This document shows, piece after piece, positions 48,921-63,156 of a DNA stretch of 64,000 nucleotides; positions within the stretch are counted from its first letter, which is position 1, and each line of letters begins with the position of its first letter. Made by a program: the position numbers and the translations under genes. The notes beneath the pieces are model-generated. The model was not told the DNA's origin. It saw only the letters and a program-made list of their open reading frames with translations, and did not search any database. Source of the DNA: a candidate division FCPU426 bacterium (GTDB lineage: Bacteria; Oederibacteriota; PGYV01; Palsa-1178). Location: the NCBI GenBank assembly GCA_963840035.1, contig CAWIXE010000002.1, positions 1,280,001-1,344,000 on the forward strand. The letters run 5' to 3'.

Positions 48921-49505
48921 CTAAATAGTCAAATGCTTGTTCTTTATCCACTTCCATATTTTTACCCGGAGCTGCTCGTCGTCCCTGGTCTCCCAGTACG
49001 ACGACGTATCCATGACTTCCAGGTCCTTGACATACCTTTTCTTGACATAATCAAGGAGTTTAACCACCTGGACGTGGTGCTCAAAATCCGCCGTTATGGT
49101 CTTAACAAAGGGGAAATACATGAATTCGTATTTTTTAACGCTGATTTTTTTAGTAAGGCCGGGCGCGTTGCTTGAGGTAAATATTATTGTGGAAAGCCTG
49201 CCGTTCCTGTCAAAAGTAAGTTTTACCGGTTCTTTATCCGGGGAAGGCTTGATTATGACTCCTTCAAGGTATACTTCGGAGCTGGAAAGCGCGAGGATTC
49301 CTTCTTCATCAGCCGACCCTTCGGTTCCATCGCCCGCAGCCGCTGTATCCGCCGTGATGTGCGTCCTTGCTGTCATTGACTGGAAATTTTCCTTTACAAT
49401 CTCATAACCCCAGCCGTTTATCCTGCAGATGTCGACAAACTCCTCAACAAGCTGGCTGATGGATTCTTTTCCCGCTATGGTCCCGTTATATTTTATATAT
49501 ATCAT
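48921..49505 (-). CDS. Hypothetical protein
   Basis: 194-aa ORF directly downstream of the Ton/PorV operon; no family recognised. Confidence 0.7.
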   Translation of the reverse strand: MIYIKYNGTIAGKESISQLVEEFVDICRINGWGYEIVKENFQSMTARTHITADTAAAGDGTEGSADEEGILALSSSEVYLEGVIIKPSPDKEPVKLTFDRNGRLSTIIFTSSNAPGLTKKISVKKYEFMYFPFVKTITADFEHHVQVVKLLDYVKKRYVKDLEVMDTSSYWETRDDEQLRVKIWKWIKNKHLTI

Positions 49506-49527: not shown

Positions 49528-50442
49528 TCAGCCGTTTATAATAAATACTATCCTGTAATTTTTCGGAAGGCTGTTGTCTATAAGCGCGTCCATCTTAAAA
49601 AATTCCTTCGGCACCTTAAGGTCGGCTTCAAAATACTTCTGGAACGTCCTTATCTGGTCCGCGGATATGCCCGCGTCCTCCGAGAATACCTGAATATTGA
49701 CCGGGAACCTGTTGTTCATTTTCATGAAGTCCTCTATCTCCTGCAGTATGGCCTTACCCGCGTCGGTAAGCCTTTCCTTTCTCTTCTCTTCAAACATGGA
49801 CTTGGATGAAACCTCTATTACCAGTTTACCGTCCCTGCGGTACTTTATGCCGTTTACTTCCTTGGGGGTTTCCCTGCGGACATTGCCGATATTTCCGGCT
49901 TTATCCTGATATGAAAGCAGGTACCAGTACGGCGACCCCATCTTAAGCATGCGGCCTTCCTTATCAAGCCCGTCCCACTTTATCTCCTGCGGCAGGTTCC
50001 CGTCGCCTTTCTGAAAATATACGGTTCCTCCCGTGGAATCTGTCACTTTAAAGGTCCATTTGTCCAGGTTAAAACCCGCCGGCATCTTGGGTGATATCTT
50101 AAACACAGGCGGTGATTCAAGAAAGCTCAAAGCAGGGTGATAATCAACCCTTTTTTCCGACATTGTATCCGGAAGGCTGGCCTTAACATCCTTTACATCT
50201 TCCGGTGAAATATTAAGAAAGGTTTCTTCTGTTGAAATTATACTCTGCGCTACTTCGTTCGCGTCTGTCTGTATTTCAATCTCGGGTTTTTCAGTCTCAA
50301 TTTTAATCTTAAGCTGGCCTTTTACCACGACTTCCTGTGAGGAGTCGCCCTGTCCCGCGGCAGGCTTATCCTCGCAAAATACCGCAGTTGTAAAAACAAA
50401 TAGAGATGCCGCTACCGCAGCCGAAATCAAATACTTTTTCAT
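49528..50442 (-). CDS. Exported protein: TonB-box-like N-terminus, FlgD-like Ig domain, degenerate OmpA-like C-terminus
   Basis: Signal peptide; QEVVVKG; WTFKVTD...IKWDGLDKEG...YQDKAGN; C-terminal MFE...LTDAGKAILQEI...NYRIVFII. Confidence 0.6.
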   Translation of the reverse strand: MKKYLISAAVAASLFVFTTAVFCEDKPAAGQGDSSQEVVVKGQLKIKIETEKPEIEIQTDANEVAQSIISTEETFLNISPEDVKDVKASLPDTMSEKRVDYHPALSFLESPPVFKISPKMPAGFNLDKWTFKVTDSTGGTVYFQKGDGNLPQEIKWDGLDKEGRMLKMGSPYWYLLSYQDKAGNIGNVRRETPKEVNGIKYRRDGKLVIEVSSKSMFEEKRKERLTDAGKAILQEIEDFMKMNNRFPVNIQVFSEDAGISADQIRTFQKYFEADLKVPKEFFKMDALIDNSLPKNYRIVFIING

Positions 50443-50448
50443 ATTACA

Positions 50449-51399
50449 TCACCTCGAAAGTTTATAAACAAATATAGCCGTTCCGGACTGGTCCTCTGAA
50501 CTCGATAATGGCGCGAACATGAACTGTACCAGCGCCTCTTTTGCCAGGTCATCAAGTTCCGGATACCCGGATGTTTTTTCTATATAAAGATTATCCTTAA
50601 CCGAACCGTCGGACCTTACGGTAAATGCCACGGCAACCTGGGCTTCTATGCCCTGTTCCTCGGCCCAGCGCGGATATATGGGCGAGGTCTTTCGCAGGAT
50701 CTGCCTGCCTGAAAGCTGGCCTGTAATAAGCAGGGCTGTGCCTTTTTCCTTTTTAATAACTATGTTTTCCTCAGCCTGCCTTTTAGGTTCCGGCGTCGGT
50801 TTTTCCAGCTTTGGGGCCATGGTCTTTAATCCGCTTCCGCCTTTTGCCATGGCGTCAGCGGATATGGCCGGCCTGTTTACAGGAAGGAAGCTGTTTGTCT
50901 TCGGCGCGTTAGCTGAAAGGTTTAACTTTGAAGGCCCCGCCGCCAGTTTCTTTTCATTATCAAGGGCCAGTTTCTGCTGTTCTATCATAGCCGGCGATAT
51001 CTTTTTCTTGCCTATTTCATTGTCAAGGTCCAGCGTTTTCATGTTTGGCTTTAAGGCGTCAAGCTTTGTCTTGTCAAGCGACAGGGCCTGGGGTTTTTTC
51101 AGGTCCATCTCCGGCTTTTTAAGGTCAAGCGCTTTGGGCTTGGCAAGTTCCAGCTGCTGGTTCTGCTTGATGGGTATAAGCTGCTTGAACATATCAAACA
51201 TTTTTTTCGGTTTTTCAAGTTCCATCGGCTTTTGCTCGTCCGGGATCTCCTCAAGCATGGTTATCTCGGTTAACTTGTAATCCTCCATCTTCTGCTTGTG
51301 CTGATAGCTTAAGAAAAGGAGGAATATGGCAACTTCGATGGTTATTGCGAAAAGGAACGAACCTGTTAACCCTTTTCTGTCAAAATCGCTTGCGAACAT
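50449..51399 (-). CDS. tonB: TonB-family energy transducer
   Basis: N-terminal TM, Lys/Pro-rich linker, C-terminal PIYPRWAEEQGIEAQVAVAFTVRSDGSV...TSGYPELDDLA. Confidence 0.85.
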   Translation of the reverse strand: MFASDFDRKGLTGSFLFAITIEVAIFLLFLSYQHKQKMEDYKLTEITMLEEIPDEQKPMELEKPKKMFDMFKQLIPIKQNQQLELAKPKALDLKKPEMDLKKPQALSLDKTKLDALKPNMKTLDLDNEIGKKKISPAMIEQQKLALDNEKKLAAGPSKLNLSANAPKTNSFLPVNRPAISADAMAKGGSGLKTMAPKLEKPTPEPKRQAEENIVIKKEKGTALLITGQLSGRQILRKTSPIYPRWAEEQGIEAQVAVAFTVRSDGSVKDNLYIEKTSGYPELDDLAKEALVQFMFAPLSSSEDQSGTAIFVYKLSR

Positions 51400-51418: not shown

Positions 51419-51844
51419 TTATTTCATATTCTTTTTTGTCATAGTGGCAAAATATATCTTTTTGGGTTTTGCCTTCTTAATAACGTCCATAGCGTCGAGG
51501 ACCACGCCTTCCTGCACTCCCTCGTCCGCCTTTATGATGACCACGTGTTCCTCGGTCTTGACCAATTTCGTGGCCACCCACTGCTGAAGTTCCTTGTCGT
51601 TGCTAACTTCCTTTTCATTAACGGACATCTTTCCGTCCTTATCTATGGTTACCGTAACATGCTCTTCGTTTTTCGTCTCGTCCGTCATAGCCTTGGGCAG
51701 CGTCACCTCAAGCTTTGACTGTGTCATAAACGGGGTTGTTACCATGAATATGATAACAAGCACCAGCGAAACGTCCACAAGCGGTGTTACATTAATGTCT
51801 GTTATCGGCTCGTCTTCCCCGCCGCCTCCGGCTTTCATTGACAT
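51419..51844 (-). CDS. exbD: ExbD/TolR family protein (copy 2)
   Basis: DINVTPLVDVSLVLVIIFMVT, VTLPKA, IIKADEGV. Confidence 0.9.
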   Translation of the reverse strand: MSMKAGGGGEDEPITDINVTPLVDVSLVLVIIFMVTTPFMTQSKLEVTLPKAMTDETKNEEHVTVTIDKDGKMSVNEKEVSNDKELQQWVATKLVKTEEHVVIIKADEGVQEGVVLDAMDVIKKAKPKKIYFATMTKKNMK

Positions 51845-51862: not shown

Positions 51863-52285
51863 TTATTCTTCAGCTTTTTGTACTTTATCCTGCCTCATGA
51901 TAGAAAGTGTCTTTGCTCCCGCCATTTTCGCGGTATCAAGGACCCAGACAAGCCTGCCGTGCGTGGCATCCCTGTCGGATGTTACCATGCAAAGCTTCTT
52001 TTTATTGGCGGCCATGGCCGACTTTAAAGCCTCAATCTCTGTCCCGGCCTGGACCTTTTTATTGTTTATAAAAAGGGCGTTCGCCGTTATCCTCACCTGT
52101 ACGGCTTCGTCTTTTGTCGACTTTCCGACAGACTCGGTTACCTTGGATGAGTTTACTATAATACCCGACTGCACGACCATCGGCGCCGTTACCATGAATA
52201 TGATAACCAGCACGAGCGATATGTCGACGAGCGGGGTGACGTTAATGTCTGTTATTGCTGATTCTTCATCCGCGCTTCCTGCCAC
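51863..52285 (-). CDS. exbD: ExbD/TolR family protein (copy 1)
   Basis: GTG start at 52285 after GGGAGG; DINVTPLVDISLVLVIIFMVTAP, SDRDATHG. Confidence 0.88.
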   Translation of the reverse strand: MAGSADEESAITDINVTPLVDISLVLVIIFMVTAPMVVQSGIIVNSSKVTESVGKSTKDEAVQVRITANALFINNKKVQAGTEIEALKSAMAANKKKLCMVTSDRDATHGRLVWVLDTAKMAGAKTLSIMRQDKVQKAEE

Positions 52286-52919
52286 TTGCGCCCTCCCCGT
52301 AATTTGCCAGAAGAACCAGCAGTTTTTTTGAAACCGCGTCCATCTCAACCGATATGGTCTTTACTTTTTTCATATATATATTAAAAATAATAACCGCCGG
52401 AATGGCGACCGCAAGGCCCGCAGCCGTGGCAATCAGGGCTTCCGCGATGCCGACCATGACAACTTCAGGGCCGCCGCCTGCTGACGACGCGAGGTCCTTA
52501 AACGCCTTGATGATACCCAGAACGGTTCCGAGCAGCCCGATGAACGGCGATGTGTTTCCGAGCGTTCCCAGGATGTCTAAGTACCTGTCCAGGTTAAGCC
52601 TTTCTTCCATCCTTTTGGCTTCCATTAACTTGTCATTTTCTTCCCTGGGGAACTGCCTGTTTTCCAGGCCGAAGCGCACCACTGCGGCCACGTTTCCCTT
52701 AAACGTCTTGCAGTATTCGACAGCCTCTTTGTAAGCTCCGTCAACTATGAAACCCTTTATTTTCTCCATGAAAGAATCAGAGTCGAGTTTTGTCTTCTGG
52801 AAATAGATCCACCTTTCGACCGATATTGCGACAACCACGACCGAGAGCAACAACATGAGAACTATAACCCAGCTGGACCTTAGGACTTGTAATACGTCAA
52901 TTGAATAAGCATTTTCCAT
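52266..52919 (-). CDS. exbB: MotA/TolQ/ExbB proton channel
   Basis: TSPFIGLLGTVLGIIKAF, GIAEALIATAAGLAVAIPA. Confidence 0.9.
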   Translation of the reverse strand: MENAYSIDVLQVLRSSWVIVLMLLLSVVVVAISVERWIYFQKTKLDSDSFMEKIKGFIVDGAYKEAVEYCKTFKGNVAAVVRFGLENRQFPREENDKLMEAKRMEERLNLDRYLDILGTLGNTSPFIGLLGTVLGIIKAFKDLASSAGGGPEVVMVGIAEALIATAAGLAVAIPAVIIFNIYMKKVKTISVEMDAVSKKLLVLLANYGEGASGRKRG

Positions 52920-52954: not shown

Positions 52955-55900
52955 TTACTTGCTTTTTTCTTCCTTTTTATCGTCTGTATTCTTCGCCGGC
53001 GCCTTAAATAGGTCCGGATACGCGCTCTTTATCTCCTCTTTCCTTGCCGCGGCCGCTGTCACATACTCTTTCTGGCCACCACTTACAGCCACTTCTTCAT
53101 ATGCCGCGACAGCGCCCTTCCAGTCAGACTTTCCCTCACAAATGGTCGCGAGGTTAATCAGCCCGGATACCCTGAATATGGAATCCTTGGGCTGGGCTTT
53201 GAACAGCTGTGTTAATGTCTGTATTGCCATTTCAGGATTTTCCAGGGTGGTGTATATGTCGCCTGCCCTGTACATGGCCTCGGTTTTAATCGCGTCATTG
53301 GCCCCATTTACCGCCAGCGCCGCGTATTCAGCGAGGGCGTCCTTATATCTTTTGGCCTCCAGGTACATACCCGCTATCTGGAGCGCTATGTCATTTGACT
53401 TTGGGTCCTTGGGAAATGTCTTTGCAAAAAGTTTATATACCCGGATGGCTTCATCCTGCTTGCCTGATTCCCCGTATGCCAGGGCCAGGTTATACATGGC
53501 GTTTGTTTCGTATTCCGTTCCCGGATACTGCTGGATAATCCTCTCATAATAGAATATCGCGTCAGGATAACTCTTGGACATGTAGGCCGCCGTCGCCAGC
53601 CTGAAAGTCACGTCTGAAGCAAGTTCGTGTTTGGGGTAATTTTTAATAAAAGCCTTGTACGCGGCAACCGCTTCCGCCATCTGCTGAAGGCCTTCGTAAC
53701 AGGCGCCCACATAGTAATGCGCGTTTACTGCCATGGTGTCGTTCGGGAACTGCTCTATGAGCTTATTGAACGCGTCGATTGATTCCTTATACTTATTTTC
53801 GGTGTAATAGGTCTCGGCGGCCTTATACAGCGCGTTAACCGCGAGGTTGCTGTCCGGATATTTGTTATAGTACTCCAAAAGTGCTTTGGGGTCGTTGGTC
53901 TTTTCCGCCTTTTTATAAGTAGCCCTCTGCATTCCCTCTTCCACGCTTGTAACCTTATTGGAATCCGGATATTTCGTCATGAACCTTTTATAAGCGTCCA
54001 CTGCTTTTGCTTCCTGGTCCGAGTTGTAATAAACCTCGGCTATAGATAGCATGGCGTCTTCTGCCGTGTCTGTCTTCGGGTACTTGTCCAGTATTTCCTG
54101 GAATCCCGCGAGTGATTTTTCAAACTGCTGGGCTTTAAAATAAATATCAGACATCTTATAAAGCGCCTCAGCCGCCCTCTTGGACTTCGGGTACCTGCTG
54201 GCCAGGATCTGCCATGACTTTATGGCGTCATTATAAAATTCCTGCGTTTCAAAGACCCTTCCCTGCTGAAATAACGCCTCTGCCGTAGGTTCGAAATCCT
54301 TGTCCTTTTCATGGGCATACGCGAACTCGCCGTACTTGGCCGATGCCTTGTCATATTCCTTTTCACTGAAATATGAGTGGGCTATTAAAATGTCGCAGGC
54401 TTTCTTTACCTGGTCATTTGCCAGCGCGCTTGATACGACATCCTTTGCCATGGTCCTGGCACCGCGGTAGTTCTCAAGCTCATAATAGCACCATGCCAGG
54501 TTAGCCCTGGACTCAGTGACTATATCGCTGTCATAATAAACATCCACTATCTGCTGAAATGACTTTGCGGCAAGGCCGTACATGCCTGACTTAATGTAGG
54601 ATTTTCCGAGGTAATAATAAGCCCTTGCCCTGACCTTCGGGTTTGGCGCCTGGTATTTATCCGAAAGCGTGCCGAGCGTCATGGCCGCCTCATTAATAAG
54701 GAGGCTGTACTGCTGCTGGTCATAATAGCACAGCTCAATCATGAGCATGGCAGCGTCTGTCAGCCCTGAAAAGCCCACCTTATCTATTATATACTTGTAC
54801 GCCTCCACAGCCGGGCCGTATTGCTTAAGTTTGTAATCAGCCGTTCCCAGCAGGTAATATCCCAGCGGCAGGTTCTCATGTGTCACAAATTTTTCAACAA
54901 AAGACCTTAATACTCCCTGTGCCTTTTCGTACTTGCCCTGGGTCACATAGCACCAGCCGGCTTTAACCAGCCCTGAAGCATATACGTCATATATGTCCGG
55001 ATACGCAGCCATGAGTTTCTCATAAGCCGCGAGCGCCTGGTCATATTTCTTCAGCTGAAGGAAACACTCCGCGATCAGGTACTGGGCAAAAGCCTTAACC
55101 TTTTTATCCCCGGTCCCGTCCATGACCTGCTTGTATACCGCGGCTGCCGCCTCATATTTTTTGTCTTTAAATAATGCCGCGCCGCGTTTGTATATGGCGT
55201 AAGGAGCGAGGCTGCTTGTCGGGAATGTATTAATGAAGTTCAGATAATCAGCGGCAGCTACAGGATAGTTAAACGACTTGTAAAAAGCCTCTGCTTTGTT
55301 ATACATGGCGCTTTCATAATATTTTGATTTTTTCGCGTCAGCGCCCTCGCCCACATTTTTAAAGGCCTCCGCAGCCTCAGGATATTTATTCTGCTTTAAA
55401 AGGCTGTGCGCCAAATAATAATATGAGGCGTCTGATTTTAATGTTTTCAGCTTTGCCGCCGCGTCCTCGTACCTTTTCAGGTAAAAATCAATAAGGCCGC
55501 CGATGAACCTGACATTATCATCTTTGGTATAGTACGGATATTTTGCCAGAAAGTCGGAAAGCTCCCTGTCCGCCTTCTTGTAATCGGTAAGGTTCAGGTA
55601 TGAAAGCGATATGCCGTAGACTGCCTCCATTATAAAAAGGCTGTTTGTGTATTTGAAGCGGAACCTGGTCCAGTCATCAATGGCCTCGGAGTACTTGCCC
55701 ATGTTGTAATCCGCTTCGCCGAGCTTATACATGGCGCTGTCGGCAAAGGCGGTGGATGAAAAATCATCGGATAATTTCTTAAAAGTATCATAGGCCGGCG
55801 CGTATTTCTTCCCTTCATAGAGCGCCTCGCCTTTTAAGTACATAATCCTCGCCGACTCAAGCTTGCTTGTATCCTTCCACCTGGCTGTGAAGCCGTCCAT

Positions 55901-56068
55901 CTTGGCGATGGTATCATCGGCAAGCGGGGCCGCCTTATACGCGTCCAGCACAAGGTTCAGGTTCTTCTGCAGTTCCTTGTCGTCATCAGCCCTGGAATTC
56001 ACAGGCATGGTTGCGCATCCCACAAGAAAAGCCAAAAATGTCACTACCGCGAGTATTCTTTTCATCAT
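52955..56068 (-). CDS. Very long TPR lipoprotein (BamD/CpoB-type repeats)
   Basis: Lipobox LVGC; about 20 or more TPRs ending in YPxS/FPxx motifs. Confidence 0.85.
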   Translation of the reverse strand: MMKRILAVVTFLAFLVGCATMPVNSRADDDKELQKNLNLVLDAYKAAPLADDTIAKMDGFTARWKDTSKLESARIMYLKGEALYEGKKYAPAYDTFKKLSDDFSSTAFADSAMYKLGEADYNMGKYSEAIDDWTRFRFKYTNSLFIMEAVYGISLSYLNLTDYKKADRELSDFLAKYPYYTKDDNVRFIGGLIDFYLKRYEDAAAKLKTLKSDASYYYLAHSLLKQNKYPEAAEAFKNVGEGADAKKSKYYESAMYNKAEAFYKSFNYPVAAADYLNFINTFPTSSLAPYAIYKRGAALFKDKKYEAAAAVYKQVMDGTGDKKVKAFAQYLIAECFLQLKKYDQALAAYEKLMAAYPDIYDVYASGLVKAGWCYVTQGKYEKAQGVLRSFVEKFVTHENLPLGYYLLGTADYKLKQYGPAVEAYKYIIDKVGFSGLTDAAMLMIELCYYDQQQYSLLINEAAMTLGTLSDKYQAPNPKVRARAYYYLGKSYIKSGMYGLAAKSFQQIVDVYYDSDIVTESRANLAWCYYELENYRGARTMAKDVVSSALANDQVKKACDILIAHSYFSEKEYDKASAKYGEFAYAHEKDKDFEPTAEALFQQGRVFETQEFYNDAIKSWQILASRYPKSKRAAEALYKMSDIYFKAQQFEKSLAGFQEILDKYPKTDTAEDAMLSIAEVYYNSDQEAKAVDAYKRFMTKYPDSNKVTSVEEGMQRATYKKAEKTNDPKALLEYYNKYPDSNLAVNALYKAAETYYTENKYKESIDAFNKLIEQFPNDTMAVNAHYYVGACYEGLQQMAEAVAAYKAFIKNYPKHELASDVTFRLATAAYMSKSYPDAIFYYERIIQQYPGTEYETNAMYNLALAYGESGKQDEAIRVYKLFAKTFPKDPKSNDIALQIAGMYLEAKRYKDALAEYAALAVNGANDAIKTEAMYRAGDIYTTLENPEMAIQTLTQLFKAQPKDSIFRVSGLINLATICEGKSDWKGAVAAYEEVAVSGGQKEYVTAAAARKEEIKSAYPDLFKAPAKNTDDKKEEKSK

Positions 56069-56211: not shown

Positions 56212-57450
56212 TTATTCTTCCAGCTTTATGGATCCCGGCGACATCGGTATGGAGCTTGATATCTTTACCGTTTCCTTGCCGGATTCAATGACCTTTTTAT
56301 TTTTATCGATTACCTTCATGACGAGCTTGTATTCCCCGTCGCCTGACGGCAGTCCCCTGTCGTCTTTTCCGTCCCAAATAATCGATGCCGGCGGATTATC
56401 ATCGCCGCTGTATGTCCTTACGACGTCGCCGTCCTCATTGAATATATTCAGTTCCCATTCATTAATAGTGTATTTTGTAACCGCGTATATTGATATGGTG
56501 GTGTTTTTCTTCATGCCAACCGGCGAGAACATGGAAGGTTCAGCCTTTAAATTAATGTCAAAACCGCCGTAGAGCAGCGTTACCGATACCCTGTGCGCTA
56601 ACCCAAGTTCCTGCATGGCAATAGAATAGTCAACCTTAACCGGCTTTAAAAAATAGCCTATACCGAAGGTGTATTCAGACTCATCAATCCCCGCCCTTAA
56701 AGCAAGGTCCTGTATGGGGAAAGCCTCAAGACCCATCCTGAACTTAAGCTCTTTTTTAGACAATTCCTGCTCAAAATCAATTACTGGTATGATCCTGTCC
56801 CCCAGGAATTTAAAAGCAATACCGCCCCTTATAATAATGGGAAAAGACTCCGATGTCTGGTTGAGTTTAACAGACGCCGGTACTGCGTTTATAACTGAAA
56901 GCCCGAAGCTGAAAAAATCCGAAGGCACAAAAAGAAATCCCACGTCAAGCCCGTATCCCATGGCATTCTTGTCATATACCGATTCGCTGATGAGTTTTAA
57001 GTTCGCTCCGGCGCTGAGCCATGACGTGATATCCCTGGCATATGAGATTATATATGCCTGGTTTGTAACCGCAAAATTGCCTGTCCCCGGAGATTCCCAT
57101 AATCCGTTACGGGGATCAAAACCCGTGGTGCGAAGGCTCACAAACGAACCCGCAAAAGTGCCTATGCCCGAGACCGGATATGTAACAGCCGCAAAATCAT
57201 ACATCGTGTCATAAAATAATACAACGTGCTGCAGTGTTACCTGCAGTGGGTTTTGCAGGGCAAGCCCGGCCGGGTTGTAATAAACAGCCGAAGGATCGTC
57301 CGCCAGTCCCGTAAATGCCCTTCCCATCCCAAGCGACCTGGCGCCGGCGCCCCAGTTTAAAAACTCTCCGGGCGTCCCGTAATCGCCTTTTGCAAAGGCA
57401 AAAGACACGGCCGTCAGCAGGGCCAGCAGTATTAAAGACACTCTTTTCAT
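56212..57450 (-). CDS. PorV/PorQ-like (FadL-fold) outer-membrane barrel with C-terminal FlgD-like Ig domain
   Basis: Signal peptide; GAGARSLGMGRAFTGLADDPSAVYYNPAGL; LALRAG, VDYS...LGLAHRVSV; then FSP...WELNI...WDGKDDRG...DGEY. GGAGG RBS precedes ATG 57450. Confidence 0.8.
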   Translation of the reverse strand: MKRVSLILLALLTAVSFAFAKGDYGTPGEFLNWGAGARSLGMGRAFTGLADDPSAVYYNPAGLALQNPLQVTLQHVVLFYDTMYDFAAVTYPVSGIGTFAGSFVSLRTTGFDPRNGLWESPGTGNFAVTNQAYIISYARDITSWLSAGANLKLISESVYDKNAMGYGLDVGFLFVPSDFFSFGLSVINAVPASVKLNQTSESFPIIIRGGIAFKFLGDRIIPVIDFEQELSKKELKFRMGLEAFPIQDLALRAGIDESEYTFGIGYFLKPVKVDYSIAMQELGLAHRVSVTLLYGGFDINLKAEPSMFSPVGMKKNTTISIYAVTKYTINEWELNIFNEDGDVVRTYSGDDNPPASIIWDGKDDRGLPSGDGEYKLVMKVIDKNKKVIESGKETVKISSSIPMSPGSIKLEE

Positions 57451-57570
57451 AAATACCTCCGAATTAATTTTATATTTTACATTTTCAATTTTCAATTAAA
57501 AACACAAGCAAGCATGTTACATCCACGCCTGTCGCAATGAATCGAAAATTTAAAATTAAAAATTCAAAAT

Positions 57571-60500
57571 TTACTTCTGTACAGCGATCTTCCTAGCCAG
57601 TTTCTTCTTTGACCCGCCAAAAACAGCCTCAACCACGCAGATGTAGCCGCCGTTTCCGACAACTTCGCCTTTAGTGTTTTTGCCGTCCCAGTCAAATATG
57701 TTGACCTGGCCGCCAATAGCCCCGGCAGAGCCTGACATGATATCCTTGCTGTAAACCGCATCACCAAACAGCGAATAAATCCTGACCTTAACATCGCTGG
57801 AAGAATCAAGCAAATATGTTATGTGCGTAACCTCAGCCCCGGCCCTGAACGGGTTCGGGTAATTTGAAACCTGGTTTTCAGCCGGTTCCGCAAGTGAAAC
57901 ATTTACCGTCACATACCTGTATGTGCCGTTATACGCGGCCCTTATCAGGCATGATTCATTTGTAAGCCCGCCGTAAAATATTACCGAAGAGTCGCCGCCG
58001 GCGTTTGTCGACGCGCTGGCATTTTTCGTAAGGCCGCTGAATGTGCCGCTTCCTTTTATAACCGAGAAGCTGACATTAACGCCGCTTACAAAATTACCGT
58101 TTCCATCCACAACATTTCCGATGATATCATCGGCGGCATTTGCCCTTATATTCGGCCTGGACGCCCTTGCCGTAAATGTCACGGCATTCGGGTTTGCGCC
58201 GACTATAATGACCGGACACGGCGCTATATTATAAGATGGTAAAAGCGGTACCGAGCCCGTAACTTTAAGCCTCATGCTTCCGGAGGAGGTATACTGCATA
58301 TCGGCAATTTCCAGTTCCCCATTTACGACATTACCGCCCGGGAACGCTATCCCGGTCGAGTATAATAATGAGCCTGGCGCGTTCACGCTGGAATCAACTG
58401 GCACGGTCAGCGCCGGCGTCAGGTTAAAACTGTCATTTGAAGAGTATACCGGGTTATTTGAAACAGTGTCATTGACCTGCACTCGCACCCTAAATGTGGC
58501 GGGCGCCGCAAGGACATTGACAGTTTCAAGGCCGGTGAGCCTTCCGACCCATTCATTTTTGGATGTATCCCATACCTGAATGGCATAATATTTCTGATCT
58601 CCTACTATGGTCTTGATTGTGGCCGCCGTTGACTTAAGCGGATTGGAAGACGCGGTATCCGCAACATTCAATCCGACAGCCGTATAATATGTCACCAGGA
58701 AATTAGCCTGGAAATAGGCCGTACCTGTCGCCGGATTTATGGATACCAATTTCGGGTATGTAGGGCCGGTATTGTCCTCAGGTATTGATCCGTCATTTAC
58801 CCCTCCCGCGTAAAAACTTAATATCGCGCTTGAGCCCAAAGTAAAATTACCGAATTTATCGCAAGCCTGCGCTGATACCGGGAATGGCGCTCCATTGGTC
58901 TGGGTCCTTGCCACTCCGGAAATTCCGTTATACCATGTTGACGGGCCCCTCATGCCGCCTGAACCGCCTATTGGATAAAGCCCGGGCACCAGAACCTGAA
59001 GCCCGTATGAATCTCCAGGTATGGTCGTAAAAGTCATGCCGTTTGCCTGTAAACTAAAGGGTTCAATCGCGGGGCTTGATACATCCGCTTTTACCCACAT
59101 GCCAGGCGCGGCAGTATGGAATATGACATTAGTATGTACCTCACCGTCGGAAGCCGGAATTGTCGTCCTGGTTACAGGCACGCCGTAAATATCATTTGTG
59201 GTCACTGTCAGTGTATATCCGCTTAAGTCAGGGTAAGGCGTCTGAACTTTGTTTCCGTAAAGGTCGCAGGCCATAACCAGGAAGTCAGTCCCTGCGGGGT
59301 TATGGCTAACGTTATCATCGTTCACAGATACCTCAAAAGTCGGGTTAAACGGGCTTAAGTCCGGATTATACATGAGGAATGTGTTGTTATTCGGACCGCT
59401 GTATACGCCGGGGTCCGCATCCATTCCGGAAGCGATTATGAGCAGCCTTTTAAACACATTCGCAACCGTGGCTATGTCCGCGCTCCTGCCGTTTGGCGTT
59501 CCGAAGTTTGCGGTTATATACGCTTCAAACTCACCGCCCTTAAATATCTTTGTGCTGATTGTCGCTTCACCGTTGACAAGCGCGTACGCTGTCGGCGACA
59601 TGGTATTAGCGCCTGTCTGGCATTGAAGCGTTATAGGTTTGCTGAAAGGCTTTCCCACGTTCCAGCCATTATCGTGCACATTATCCCACTCGTCCATGGC
59701 CTTAACCACTATGTTAAACGGCTCGCCCGCGGTTACAGGCGTAACCGGCGCGTCGACGGTAAAATGGTGAAGTGTGTCATTATGATAAACGTGTATAGGG
59801 TCTGTCGTAAAATTATTTGCATAACCGCCGTCAGCCGTAACAGTCCTTAAGCCCGTAGTTCCGACCGTCTTTAAAACCATGTCCGAGAAAATAGCCCCTC
59901 CCGCAGTAAGAGACACGGTCCGGCTCAAGTCTATGCCGCCCAGCGACGCCCTGGGGTCAGATGAAGAAATGGTAACCGAATTTGACCCGAGATTGAAACA
60001 TCTGTTAAAAAACTCGTCAACAATCATTACATTCATGGTTGAGTTTGTGCCGGCCATTACATACTTGGGGTTTTTATTTATGTCATATCCCTTTATGTCG
60101 CTGGCCTGTATTCCGTCAGCGAAAGGCGATATGCCCGGCATGTGCTCCATCCCCTCAAAAATAATAAGGGTGCCTTTGGGCGCCGCCGGCACCAGGTTAA
60201 ATGAATTGCTCGGAATCGGCGTCATGTTGCCAAATGCCACGCTGAAGGTAATCTGCCCGCCCATCCATATCGGGGTGCTCTGGGACGCCCTGTACATGGT
60301 AACTTCAAAAACCGCCAGGCCTTTGGTAAACAACGGCGACTTAACCGGGTAAATACAAGGAAGGTCCGGGTAATTATTTGAAGCCGCAAGATTGACGTCG
60401 AAATTATTAAAACCCATCAGTATCTGGCCGTTTGAATCAACCGCCGTGATGGAAACCATGAACGGCACTCCCGCTGTCTGCGCGCCTATCGGCCCTCCTG

Positions 60501-63156
60501 ACGTGGTTGTTATCATAAAACCATACACGTCAAAGATGGATACCGGCTGGCTTGTGTCAGACGCAATTCCGCTGGCGTTTGTGGAAGCCGTTATGATATA
60601 TGAATTTGACGGCGAACCGCATTTTATCGTAAACGTCCTTGTCCCTGACGAGAGGTTTCTCGTCGTTGGAAGTGACCCTGTGCCGTCGATATTGGAATTT
60701 CCGTTATTTGAAGTGGTTACCGTGAACTGCTGTGTCGCTGTAGTCACGACGTTATAATAATCATCGCACATATTTACCCTGACAGTAAAATTCTGGCTTA
60801 TGCCCTGCCCTGTCGGGGTGCCGGTCTCGCCCAGCGTGGTTCCCGGCCTTGCTGTAACTCCCGGTACTATGACCTGGAACTTTTTAGGGGTGGAGCCGGC
60901 CGTAACCGTGACAAAACTGCTGAAACCCACATGGCCCGTAAACGAGACCATGTTCGGCGTATCGTTAAAGCTATCGCTTACAAAAAGCTGCGCTGTCTGC
61001 GTGCCCGCCCTGTAAAAACGGGCTATCAAATCCGCCCTTTCACCCTGCGCCGTGAATGTGACAGCCCATTTGTATGAATACTGCCCGGTGGTGTCCTGAA
61101 CGCTCGCGGTGGATGTAACGTCAATGGTCGACGCGTTAGGCAGCGTGTAATCAAGGTTGCTTGAAACATACACCACACCCGTATAATCGGTCTTCACATT
61201 GCCAAACTGGTCCCTGGCCCTGATTACGGGATTAAATGAAGCGCCCGCGGCCCTGGAAGACGGCATGCCGCCTATCTCAAAATACGCGACATTTCCCGCG
61301 CTTACAGATATGGTGTCAGTATAATCATTTGAATTGCCTGAAACTATGCCGGGATTAGTGGAATCAGCGGCTGAAATAGTCCGCGTGCCCACGCCGACCG
61401 AAAAAGTCCTGAAAATAAAGTGACACTGGGATTTACCTTCGGCAAGCGCGATGGTAAACGGGACCGGCGATGAATTGACCGTTGCGCTTAAATCGCTGGA
61501 ATCTATGACCACGTTATCCGTAACCGTATCTATAATATTCCCGAAGTAATCCGTGGCGTATACATCAAACGTAAAATCCTGCCCGACCGTCTGCGCGTCA
61601 GCCCCGGGCACCTTCCCAAAGGTTGTTTTGCTTCCGGCATCGTGGGCATCTCCGGGGGCCAGCAGCAAGATTTTGCTTAATGTACCGGCCAATACGTCAA
61701 AACTGTTTGTCGCGCCTTTTTTATTTGAATCAGAATCATCGGCCACGAGTATGGCCGCGGAAAATACTTTTTTGAAGATATAAAGCCTTATGCTGGCTAT
61801 GCCGCTTATACCGTTAAACGTACCGCCTGAGAAATCCCACTTATCCGTACTAAGCAAAGTTCCTCCGGGATAACCGCCCGTATACACGGAAACATCCACG
61901 GGCCCCGCATACGACGTAACCGTATTTTCATATAAATCCCTCGCGGATACTAAGGCTGTTATTTCCTGCTCTGTATTCACGGTTGAAATGGTATTTACGA
62001 CCTTGAAGTGGTCAATGGTGCTAAATGTCATCGGCGCGGTATCAATGTCATCTGCGGCAATGGCGGGTACATGGGAAACAGTAATATTTTGAGCGCCTGC
62101 GCCCACGGTCTTTAAAGTTATTGTAGTGGTCGCAACGCCTGATGACAGGGCCACCACAACCGGGGTAAACTGAGGATCTGCCGACGTTATGGAAACATTG
62201 CCTGTTATGGCGGTGTTAGTGTTCCAGTATGCGTCGCAGGCTATGATATTAACGCTAAACGGCGTTCCCGCTGTCCTCTGAGTCATGGCCTCGCTAACTG
62301 ACACCCTTCCGTTGCCGGTGGCTGTGCCGGGCAAATATGTCTGTCCGGGCCCTATAATCAGGAGCCTCGGCGAACTTGCATTAGCGTCAACTGAAAATCC
62401 TCCGGCGGTACTGGGCGATGTTAACGAAAGCGCCGGATACGAACAGTAAAAAGTCACCTTCTGCCCCGCTGCTGTCGCATCATAAAGGACTACGGGCACA
62501 TTAACCGCCACTCCCGCCGTAAATGTCACATTGCCGAGGTTCACGGTTATGTTCTGGCCGCCATACACGGCTGTAAGCGACGCTATACCGTAAAAACTCG
62601 TAACCGCCGCCGCGCCTGAATCCTGCGCGGTAACGCTTATGTTAAAAGATGTCCCCGCTGTTTTATTTGTGGTAAGCGCGCAAAAAGTAAACTGGTTTAT
62701 TTTTTGGGTTGTTATCGTAACAGAACCCGGCTGTATGCCCACTGATGTGGGCAGGTTATTCGCGTATAATCCCACCGCCCCGTTTACTACCGCCGAACTT
62801 ATGGTCGCCTGAATAATTTTCTTTGAGTTTAACACAGGTGTCGCCGATGAATTCGGGCTTGATAAATTAACCGTGGTCGGATCGGGTGAATACGCCACAG
62901 TCTGGCTGGCTGACAAATCAAGATCTGAAGCGCTTGTATTCACAGGTTCATTTGTTAAATCATTAATGGCATAAACAGTCACATTAAATGGCACTCCCGA
63001 GGTCTGCGGATTTGGAGCCCCGCCTTTTACCCCCGCCGGATTCCATGTCTCACCCGGCGCCACAAGCAAGTACCTGGTCGCCCCAAAAGCCGGTATCGCC
63101 AGAATAATAATAAGGAAAATAGAAAAAATGACTTTTTTGGTTATTTTTAAACCCAT
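57571..63156 (-). CDS. Giant (1861 aa) secreted Ig-like repeat protein with invasin-type Big_1 module and T9SS/FlgD-like C-terminal domain
   Basis: Signal peptide; recurrent AGxPFxVxVxAxDxxxN motifs; VVDGNGNFVSGVNVSF; C-terminal NYPNPF...VRIYSLFG...WDGKNTKG.VVGNGGY...KIAVQK. Confidence 0.8.
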   Translation of the reverse strand: MGLKITKKVIFSIFLIIILAIPAFGATRYLLVAPGETWNPAGVKGGAPNPQTSGVPFNVTVYAINDLTNEPVNTSASDLDLSASQTVAYSPDPTTVNLSSPNSSATPVLNSKKIIQATISSAVVNGAVGLYANNLPTSVGIQPGSVTITTQKINQFTFCALTTNKTAGTSFNISVTAQDSGAAAVTSFYGIASLTAVYGGQNITVNLGNVTFTAGVAVNVPVVLYDATAAGQKVTFYCSYPALSLTSPSTAGGFSVDANASSPRLLIIGPGQTYLPGTATGNGRVSVSEAMTQRTAGTPFSVNIIACDAYWNTNTAITGNVSITSADPQFTPVVVALSSGVATTTITLKTVGAGAQNITVSHVPAIAADDIDTAPMTFSTIDHFKVVNTISTVNTEQEITALVSARDLYENTVTSYAGPVDVSVYTGGYPGGTLLSTDKWDFSGGTFNGISGIASIRLYIFKKVFSAAILVADDSDSNKKGATNSFDVLAGTLSKILLLAPGDAHDAGSKTTFGKVPGADAQTVGQDFTFDVYATDYFGNIIDTVTDNVVIDSSDLSATVNSSPVPFTIALAEGKSQCHFIFRTFSVGVGTRTISAADSTNPGIVSGNSNDYTDTISVSAGNVAYFEIGGMPSSRAAGASFNPVIRARDQFGNVKTDYTGVVYVSSNLDYTLPNASTIDVTSTASVQDTTGQYSYKWAVTFTAQGERADLIARFYRAGTQTAQLFVSDSFNDTPNMVSFTGHVGFSSFVTVTAGSTPKKFQVIVPGVTARPGTTLGETGTPTGQGISQNFTVRVNMCDDYYNVVTTATQQFTVTTSNNGNSNIDGTGSLPTTRNLSSGTRTFTIKCGSPSNSYIITASTNASGIASDTSQPVSIFDVYGFMITTTSGGPIGAQTAGVPFMVSITAVDSNGQILMGFNNFDVNLAASNNYPDLPCIYPVKSPLFTKGLAVFEVTMYRASQSTPIWMGGQITFSVAFGNMTPIPSNSFNLVPAAPKGTLIIFEGMEHMPGISPFADGIQASDIKGYDINKNPKYVMAGTNSTMNVMIVDEFFNRCFNLGSNSVTISSSDPRASLGGIDLSRTVSLTAGGAIFSDMVLKTVGTTGLRTVTADGGYANNFTTDPIHVYHNDTLHHFTVDAPVTPVTAGEPFNIVVKAMDEWDNVHDNGWNVGKPFSKPITLQCQTGANTMSPTAYALVNGEATISTKIFKGGEFEAYITANFGTPNGRSADIATVANVFKRLLIIASGMDADPGVYSGPNNNTFLMYNPDLSPFNPTFEVSVNDDNVSHNPAGTDFLVMACDLYGNKVQTPYPDLSGYTLTVTTNDIYGVPVTRTTIPASDGEVHTNVIFHTAAPGMWVKADVSSPAIEPFSLQANGMTFTTIPGDSYGLQVLVPGLYPIGGSGGMRGPSTWYNGISGVARTQTNGAPFPVSAQACDKFGNFTLGSSAILSFYAGGVNDGSIPEDNTGPTYPKLVSINPATGTAYFQANFLVTYYTAVGLNVADTASSNPLKSTAATIKTIVGDQKYYAIQVWDTSKNEWVGRLTGLETVNVLAAPATFRVRVQVNDTVSNNPVYSSNDSFNLTPALTVPVDSSVNAPGSLLYSTGIAFPGGNVVNGELEIADMQYTSSGSMRLKVTGSVPLLPSYNIAPCPVIIVGANPNAVTFTARASRPNIRANAADDIIGNVVDGNGNFVSGVNVSFSVIKGSGTFSGLTKNASASTNAGGDSSVIFYGGLTNESCLIRAAYNGTYRYVTVNVSLAEPAENQVSNYPNPFRAGAEVTHITYLLDSSSDVKVRIYSLFGDAVYSKDIMSGSAGAIGGQVNIFDWDGKNTKGEVVGNGGYICVVEAVFGGSKKKLARKIAVQK

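Follow-up and report, generated by a model that had tools for sequence, protein, structure and literature searches.

A putative TonB box on a probably soluble Ig-OmpA-like protein encoded beside tonB in a candidate division FCPU426 bacterium

Results

A Ton-type motor encoded between a PorV-like barrel and protein X

The window, a 64,000-nucleotide stretch of the genome of a candidate division FCPU426 bacterium, carries a run of genes for a 1861-aa CTD-type protein, a PorV/PorQ-family barrel, a 1037-aa TPR protein, ExbB, two ExbD proteins, TonB and a 304-aa protein, designated X herein. In gene order these are:

57571..63156, minus strand: 1861-aa secreted protein with a FlgD-Ig/CTD-like C-terminus
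56212..57495, minus strand: PorV/PorQ-family barrel (NF033709) with a C-terminal FlgD-like Ig domain and no box-like N-terminus
52955..56068, minus strand: 1037-aa TPR protein with CpoB/BamD-like repeats, a likely scaffold
52266..52919, minus strand: ExbB/TolQ (PF01618, E 1e-30)
51863..52348, minus strand: second ExbD/TolR (PF02472, E 2e-19)
51419..51844, minus strand: ExbD/TolR (PF02472, E 1e-25)
50449..51399, minus strand: TonB-family transducer, 316 aa, with a TM helix, a D-box-like strand (residues 43-50) and a C-terminal domain
49528..50442, minus strand: protein X, 304 aa, an ORF 6 bases past the tonB stop

The barrel scored 106 bits against NF033709 (cut-off 90), and the TPR protein matched CpoB/YbgF models. 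The 1861-aa protein, whose domain matches were FlgD_ig (E 6e-6) and, at E 0.054 only, CHU_C, is likely the cargo of the barrel. Directly 3' of X lies a 194-aa gene (48921-49505, minus strand) that keeps its place in L047-L049 and has only a weak Pfam match (E 0.044).

Five TonB-dependent-transporter barrel matches were found in the genome, all outside the operon, and no transporter gene was recognised in the X operons of 55 loci, which were annotated against the window's proteins. Since the operon thus specifies a full Ton-type motor without a recognised transporter, what its TonB grips becomes the key question. About 36 ORFs of the genome match the PorV-like barrel, several of them barrels with Ig and intact OmpA tails, so the operon appears to serve one barrel among many; about 36 also match the C-terminal domain of the cargo, some of these matches being weak or repeat-driven. 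The genome holds 11 other OmpA-family matches and a SprA/Sov-like 2165-aa ORF (G000:C2:374859-381356; L145, L146) with four matching segments, below the family cut-off. SprA_N, GldM and C25 gave no genome match, but neither did the positive controls for these searches give any signal.

Anatomy of protein X

The features of X, all on the minus strand, are:

50374..50442, minus strand: signal peptide, likely Sec/SPI, residues 1-23 (from the sequence and Ala23 in homologues)
50317..50340, minus strand: TonB-box-like 8-mer SQEVVVKG, residues 35-42 (from sequence, conservation and matrix scores)
50284..50316, minus strand: conserved stretch continuing the box, residues 43-53, with K52-P53 at its end (from the homologue alignment)
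49843..50112, minus strand: FlgD-like Ig domain, residues ~111-200 (from Pfam and the model)
49531..49851, minus strand: OmpA/MotB-like domain with an altered peptidoglycan-binding motif, residues ~198-304 (from fold matching)

A previous sequence-only reading of this DNA had pointed to the motif DSSQEVVVKG at 50317-50346 (minus strand), and both the letters and the position are correct; with the next codon, Q (50314-50316), it spans residues 33-43 of X. That reading also placed the motif right after the signal peptide, as in a TonB box, which is accurate only in part. Ala occupies column 23 in 21/31 close and 31/43 distant homologues; cleavage is therefore likely after residue 23, and a variable linker of ~10-13 residues precedes the motif. 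The motif does lie near the mature N-terminus, behind a free linker. A lipobox-like pattern occurred in 1 of 80 X sequences, and X is, as judged from sequence, likely a soluble periplasmic protein.

In an AlphaFold2 model of X, built on 41 sequences (mean pLDDT 73.5), residues 21-60 and 93-105 fall below pLDDT 50, two weak helices occupy 61-89, and a beta-sandwich (~111-200) is followed by an alpha/beta domain (~198-304). Thus the motif is predicted not to be buried in a folded domain of the monomer. The Ig domain that had been assigned to X appears as a beta-sandwich in the model, while its Pfam match (FlgD_ig, E 0.017) stays below the family cut-off. The degenerate OmpA-like domain is borne out: the best fold matches of the C-terminal domain are MotB/MotS-type domains (a MotB-like domain at Z 13.2, rmsd 2.5, 117 residues aligned), and at the Arg column that we take to bind the wall, mapped by eye, Gln is found in 55/80 X sequences and Arg in 12/80. 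No TonB-dependent-transporter plug or 22-strand barrel is present in X, which consists of Ig and OmpA-like domains, and in the model it has neither a beta-propeller nor a TolB N-domain fold. Matches of the Ig-OmpA portion lie in the tails of PorV-Ig-OmpA proteins of the same genome; X therefore looks like such a tail with a box where the barrel would be.

Conservation of the box

The close homologues, 40 besides X itself, are named mostly Candidatus Goldiibacteriota, and the distant ones include Elusimicrobiota and WOR-3. An alignment of 80 X sequences was assembled from 29 close proteins (of 41), 38 distant matches and 13 locus translations, the distant set being 38 of 40 full-length single-stretch matches picked among 150 listed (two long ones were left out). 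A second homologue search with these 80 rows returned 51 proteins, mostly known already, a number too small for coupling analysis. Column entropy was computed over 32 close and 48 distant sequences, with the box taken as residues 36-42 and the extension as 43-53. Mean entropies (bits) were:

Close: linker 2.10, box 0.51, extension 0.66, Ig 1.10, OmpA-like 1.34
Distant: linker 2.82, box 1.87, extension 2.35, Ig 2.25, OmpA-like 2.59

The box is the best-conserved region of X, both among close homologues and among those at 19-31% identity, although its position ranges over residues 25-82. The expected conservation of the motif is thereby confirmed, but the idea of EVVVxG as an isolated island is not: the box opens a longer conserved stretch with alternating hydrophobics that runs up to K52-P53, K52 being present in 44/48 distant homologues.

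Likeness to transporter TonB boxes

A box matrix was derived from the phylum's 30 top-ranking plug-domain loci, in 27 of which a box was found by pattern (23 distinct 8-mers); the search pattern used to pick these boxes shapes the matrix. X of the window scored 7.0 bits, which is a modest rank of 14 among 708 secreted-like ORFs of the genome (top 2%). The family as a whole gave a clearer signal. At least 6 bits were reached by 54/80 X homologues at the fixed column versus 20/708 background ORFs at their best position, and the box was the top-scoring 8-mer of the whole protein in 57/80 X sequences (19/32 when non-redundant). In the 32 homologues less than 40% identical to one another, the box register averaged 3.4 bits, the runner-up -7.1 and all registers -16.5 +/- 3.4, placing the box 5.8 SD above all registers. 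When the best N-terminal 8-mer was taken instead, 17/49 X proteins reached 6 bits, compared with 0/34 PorV-like and 1/43 TPR proteins.

True transporter boxes, scored by leave-one-out, averaged 18.3 bits against 3.6 for X boxes, a deficit that stems mostly from position 7, which is mostly Lys rather than Thr in X. Distant X boxes such as LEDVVVKG, LDDVVVRG, LPDVVVKA and LDDVTVTG closely resemble the transporter boxes LDDVVVTG and LPEVVVTA of the phylum. A PROSITE PS00430-type pattern matched none of the 80 X sequences, which we do not consider conclusive. Putative BtuB sequences of P. aeruginosa are described as likewise missing the TonB-box consensus (PMC6118199). We also scored the boxes on a matrix of the D-box-like strands of their own TonBs: 25 of the 32 non-redundant X boxes lay nearer the transporter matrix, and X of the window gave 7.0 bits on the transporter matrix versus -10.3 on the D-box one. 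The proposed resemblance to TonB boxes therefore stands, in that the motif is the best register of X and is closer to a transporter box than to a D-box, yet it scores well below true boxes.

Gene context and losses

Full-length X (E <1e-70) was found in 40/99 genomes of the phylum and, with E values as high as 1e-28, in 10/81 genomes sampled from the phylum to which an Elusimicrobia genome belongs. Among 35 of 36 fetched X loci that passed the filter, some of them cut by contig ends, 30 had tonB directly upstream of X and 33 had it no more than 9 kb away; the other genes were ExbB (30), ExbD (32), TPR (31) and, within 12 kb, PorV-like (22). In a wider set of 55 loci, which includes an Elusimicrobia genome and, being composed of best hits plus paralogues, is not made up of independent cases, tonB was within 9 kb of X in 49.

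Where a stand-alone X lies near tonB, the box pattern was matched in 38/49 and missed in 11. Of these 11, three were near misses, two were degenerate, and six, which read (D/E)F-x-A-x-G, belong to a single paralogue clade. The box is retained in two X genes (L065, L111) that have no tonB close by. Four fusions of TPR and X have neither box nor tonB in the fetched DNA:

L098:2003-4048: TPR-X fusion, no Ton genes in the fetched DNA
L099:613-2409: TPR-X fusion, no Ton genes in the fetched DNA
L100:14635-16731: TPR-X fusion, no Ton genes in the fetched DNA
L106:3546-4889: TPR-X fusion, no Ton genes in the fetched DNA

The four are related and may represent a single event, and two of them are on contigs of <6 kb. 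Fusion also ties X to a TPR partner. For the PorV-Ig-OmpA proteins, and for all but one of the four fusions, the match to the X profile starts no earlier than position 73.

Several variants of the locus were encountered. In the paralogue clade (L042, L044, L045, L105, L107-L110) X is flanked by the TPR gene on one side and exbB on the other, with a box of the form (D/E)F-x-(A/S)-x-G-K-N. Genes with long Thr-Pro repeats precede three of the fusions. A 659-aa X variant has an unannotated C-terminal extension (L034:1989-3968), two tandem tonB-like genes occur at L064:9029-10575, and a 1000-aa multi-Ig-OmpA gene is inserted between TPR and exbB at L062:4304-7504. In L047 the cargo, barrel, TPR and exbB genes are broken up by frameshifts, apparently as a result of sequencing error.

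The TonB of the operon

The TonB C-domain overlays E. coli TonB 1u07 with Z 11.1 (rmsd 1.8, 82 residues aligned), compared with Z 6-7 for TolA domains. Ahead of it, the model and conservation define an extra strand:

50719..50736, minus strand: extra beta-strand ALLITG, TonB residues 222-227, ahead of the C-domain

This strand is confidently modelled, and its Gly is invariant in 33/33 aligned TonBs of TPR-linked operons. Overlaid on the g3p-TolA fusion 1tol, the TonB aligns over 90 residues that begin within the g3p part. As described, g3p and TolB bind the same TolA edge (PMC7391070). Taken together, these two points raise the prospect that in the predicted structure the extra strand occupies the edge to which a box would bind, and it may be self-inhibitory. 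It need not block binding, since E. coli TonB is described as giving up its last strand in exchange for the box (PMC6118199), and TolB as displacing a TolA helix on binding (PMC8928145). None of 48 extra strands scored as a box at 6 bits. Their region reads LLITGQL in the window, close to VVVKGQL of X.

At TonB residue 22, a transmembrane position, the window has Glu (51334-51336, minus strand) in place of the His of 15/15 relatives; this may reflect a variant, an error or a copy that has weakened. Among these relatives is an orphan tonB paralogue at G000:C1:133530-134480, 44% identical and with its His intact.

A second TPR-Ton operon

A second TPR-Ton operon lies elsewhere in the same genome (G000:C3:78759-85217; L004, L010, L118) and was found in 25/99 genomes. 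Its TPR protein is homologous to the first (23% over 968 aa), and it further encodes ExbB, a likely ExbD, a TonB sharing the extra strand, and a 566-aa barrel with weak transporter-family matches only, at its C-terminus. The N-terminus of this barrel carries a conserved box plus extension in 25/25 aligned sequences, reading P-E-I-x-I-(T/K/S)-G-x-x-D-T-x-I in 24 and LPDVIITG in the remaining one. Hence the box is on the barrel in the second operon, whereas in the first it is on X. Profile alignment of the X box with the N-terminus of the 566-aa barrel covered 19 columns at a probability of 6% (E 0.006), a match too weak for a claim of homology between these N-termini, which we regard as a parallel.

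Discussion

A candidate grip for TonB

Sequence, position, synteny and pattern of loss all fit a TonB-binding strand. We propose that residues 35-42 of X are a TonB box bound by the C-domain of the adjacent TonB, with a probability of roughly 0.63. X would then likely be a pulled adaptor, comparable to TolB or GltF, for a barrel that has no box of its own. In such a machine the extra strand of TonB would move aside, and the C-domain would take the box as an added beta-strand, parallel to the last TonB strand, in the manner of TonB-transporter and TolA-TolB complexes. The ExbB-ExbD-ExbD motor would pull, through TonB, on X. Residues 43-110 together with the Ig domain would hold the TPR protein or the Ig tail of the barrel, an attachment suggested by the TPR-X fusions and by domain homology, and the pull would release or reposition the barrel together with its large CTD-type cargo. 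This whole chain, from the grip on X to the relay to a cargo-laden barrel, we rate a little below an even chance; the adaptor interpretation put forward earlier is accordingly supported in part.

The conserved stretch could, alternatively, be a static assembly strand in which residues 37-60 pair with the TPR protein, the Ig tail of the barrel or another X, while TonB acts elsewhere. Any short amphipathic strand looks like a box, and conservation with alternating hydrophobics runs on through residues 43-53. The edge of TonB is possibly already occupied by its own strand, one clade retains tonB beside a decayed box, and loss of the box in the fusions is also expected if a TPR-binding strand became redundant. 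In the model described for GltG and GltD, moreover, the TPR scaffold has a long TonB-family linker wound directly around it (PMC11761067). The match, however, extends to the Leu-acid-acid start and the closing Gly/Ala that are typical of transporter boxes, the location behind a free linker is where a box would lie, and the other operon proteins tested lack one; we therefore consider a static strand rather unlikely. Mimicry of a different Ton element is improbable. It would have the X strand imitate the D-box of TonB and bind the ExbD pair, and X would then serve as a MotB-like wall anchor that can detach, or as a motor regulator, as the MotB/MotS-type fold matches might suggest. The first six box positions do resemble the D-box-like strand L-T-E-I-T-M of TonB, but D-boxes end hydrophobic-acidic while the X box ends Lys-Gly, and the matrix comparison above favors transporter boxes for most of the family and for X of the window. 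Least probable is that the motif belongs to the fold of X itself or is a chance look-alike. The lone X sequence does rank only in the top 2%, and a model built on 41 close sequences could let an intramolecular pairing escape. Against this, both domains of X fold while residues 21-60 stay below pLDDT 50, the box register stands out family-wide, and the Ig-OmpA relatives and most fusions align only downstream of the box, from profile position 73 on.

A further alternative accepts a pull on X but makes X the end target of TonB, a one-chain TolB-plus-Pal-like tether pulled on or off peptidoglycan, with the barrel uninvolved. Its OmpA/MotB fold and the CpoB/YbgF matches of the TPR protein agree with such a role, as does the finding that no TolB_N (PF04052) match exists in the genome, for which the controls were positive. 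X and the motor genes also occurred with no PorV-like gene seen nearby in 13/35 loci, some of them cut short, and TolB-Pal fusions have been reported (PMC12204202). On the other hand, X has no lipid anchor or beta-propeller, the likely wall-binding Arg is mostly replaced by Gln (55/80), and the 11 further OmpA-family proteins matched in the genome stand against it. On the whole a wall tether seems quite unlikely, and a TonB box on an adaptor remains the preferred interpretation. A bolder extension, which we consider less likely than not, is that in a family of envelope machines of Goldiibacteriota, Elusimicrobiota and WOR-3 the TonB box has passed from the barrel to a separate Ig-OmpA adaptor, allowing a Ton motor to pull on a type IX-style PorV barrel and its giant surface protein, with TonB guarding its binding edge by its own strand until the adaptor displaces it.

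Comparison with known systems

The box on X resembles that of a transporter in being an 8-residue acid-Val-x-Val-x-Gly/Ala strand behind a free N-terminal linker. It differs in that X has no plug or barrel, position 7 is mostly Lys, and a conserved extension runs to Lys-Pro. As a named candidate grip for the TonB of the operon, it narrows the problem to a domain of 100 residues and a single peptide. The hosts are apparently uncultured. In a literature survey covering few subscription papers, no description of X or its operon was found; the supplements of PMC12204202 are said there to list tol-pal loci, including those of Elusimicrobia, and could cover the operon under another name.

A box on a soluble protein is not new in principle. 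A box-like strand on soluble periplasmic TolB has been shown (PMC8928145, PMC7391070), and for GltF a parallel strand on the TonB-like domain of GltG was predicted with AlphaFold (PMC11761067), its resemblance to a TonB box being cited in PMC9389320. If X does bind TonB, it would join TolB (shown) and GltF (predicted) as a third type of soluble target for TonB/TolA, and Ton motors would be linked to type IX-style barrels outside Bacteroidota.

A lipidated Pal with an intact wall motif is not what X represents, as the single lipobox among 80 sequences and the Gln in the mapped Arg column indicate. The X operon shares with Tol-Pal an OmpA-like domain, a CpoB-like TPR protein, and a TolQ/TolR-type motor with a transducer, but X is without the TolB N-domain and propeller, a Pal-type lipoprotein is absent from the operon, and two ExbD genes are present. 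The TonB C-domain of the window is also nearer TonB (Z 11) than TolA (Z 6-7). The proposed contact is nonetheless like that described for TolA and TolB, in which a domain of TonB fold takes hold of a soluble protein at its disordered N-terminus by a parallel strand and displaces a part of itself.

Agl-Glt offers a comparable arrangement, with one ExbB-type and two ExbD-type genes, a TonB-like transducer and a long TPR scaffold (PMC11761067, PMC9389320, PMC3169522); the likeness is judged from the published descriptions set beside the genes of the window. GltF, as described, is like X a periplasmic protein with a predicted parallel strand on a TonB-like C-domain and a bridge to an outer-membrane module. 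As far as its published description goes, it is unlike X in its small size, its largely disordered chain and its lack of Ig and OmpA-like domains, and it is reported there only in Myxococcales and Bdellovibrionales. GltG is described with FHA domains, whereas the TonB of the window has no FHA match, and the operon has a single TPR gene. The outer module of Agl-Glt is given as GltABH-K-CglB; in the X operon it is a PorV-like barrel with CTD-type cargo.

The T9SS, or type IX secretion system, resembles the X operon in its PorV-family barrel beside a CTD-type protein, and a SprA-like gene occurs elsewhere in the genome; the T9SS motor is GldLM, while that of the X operon is ExbB-ExbD-TonB. PorE is, like X, an Ig plus OmpA-like periplasmic partner for which TonB-type pulling was suggested, according to PMC12204202. 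X differs from PorE in that it is not a lipoprotein and carries neither TPR nor propeller in the same chain.
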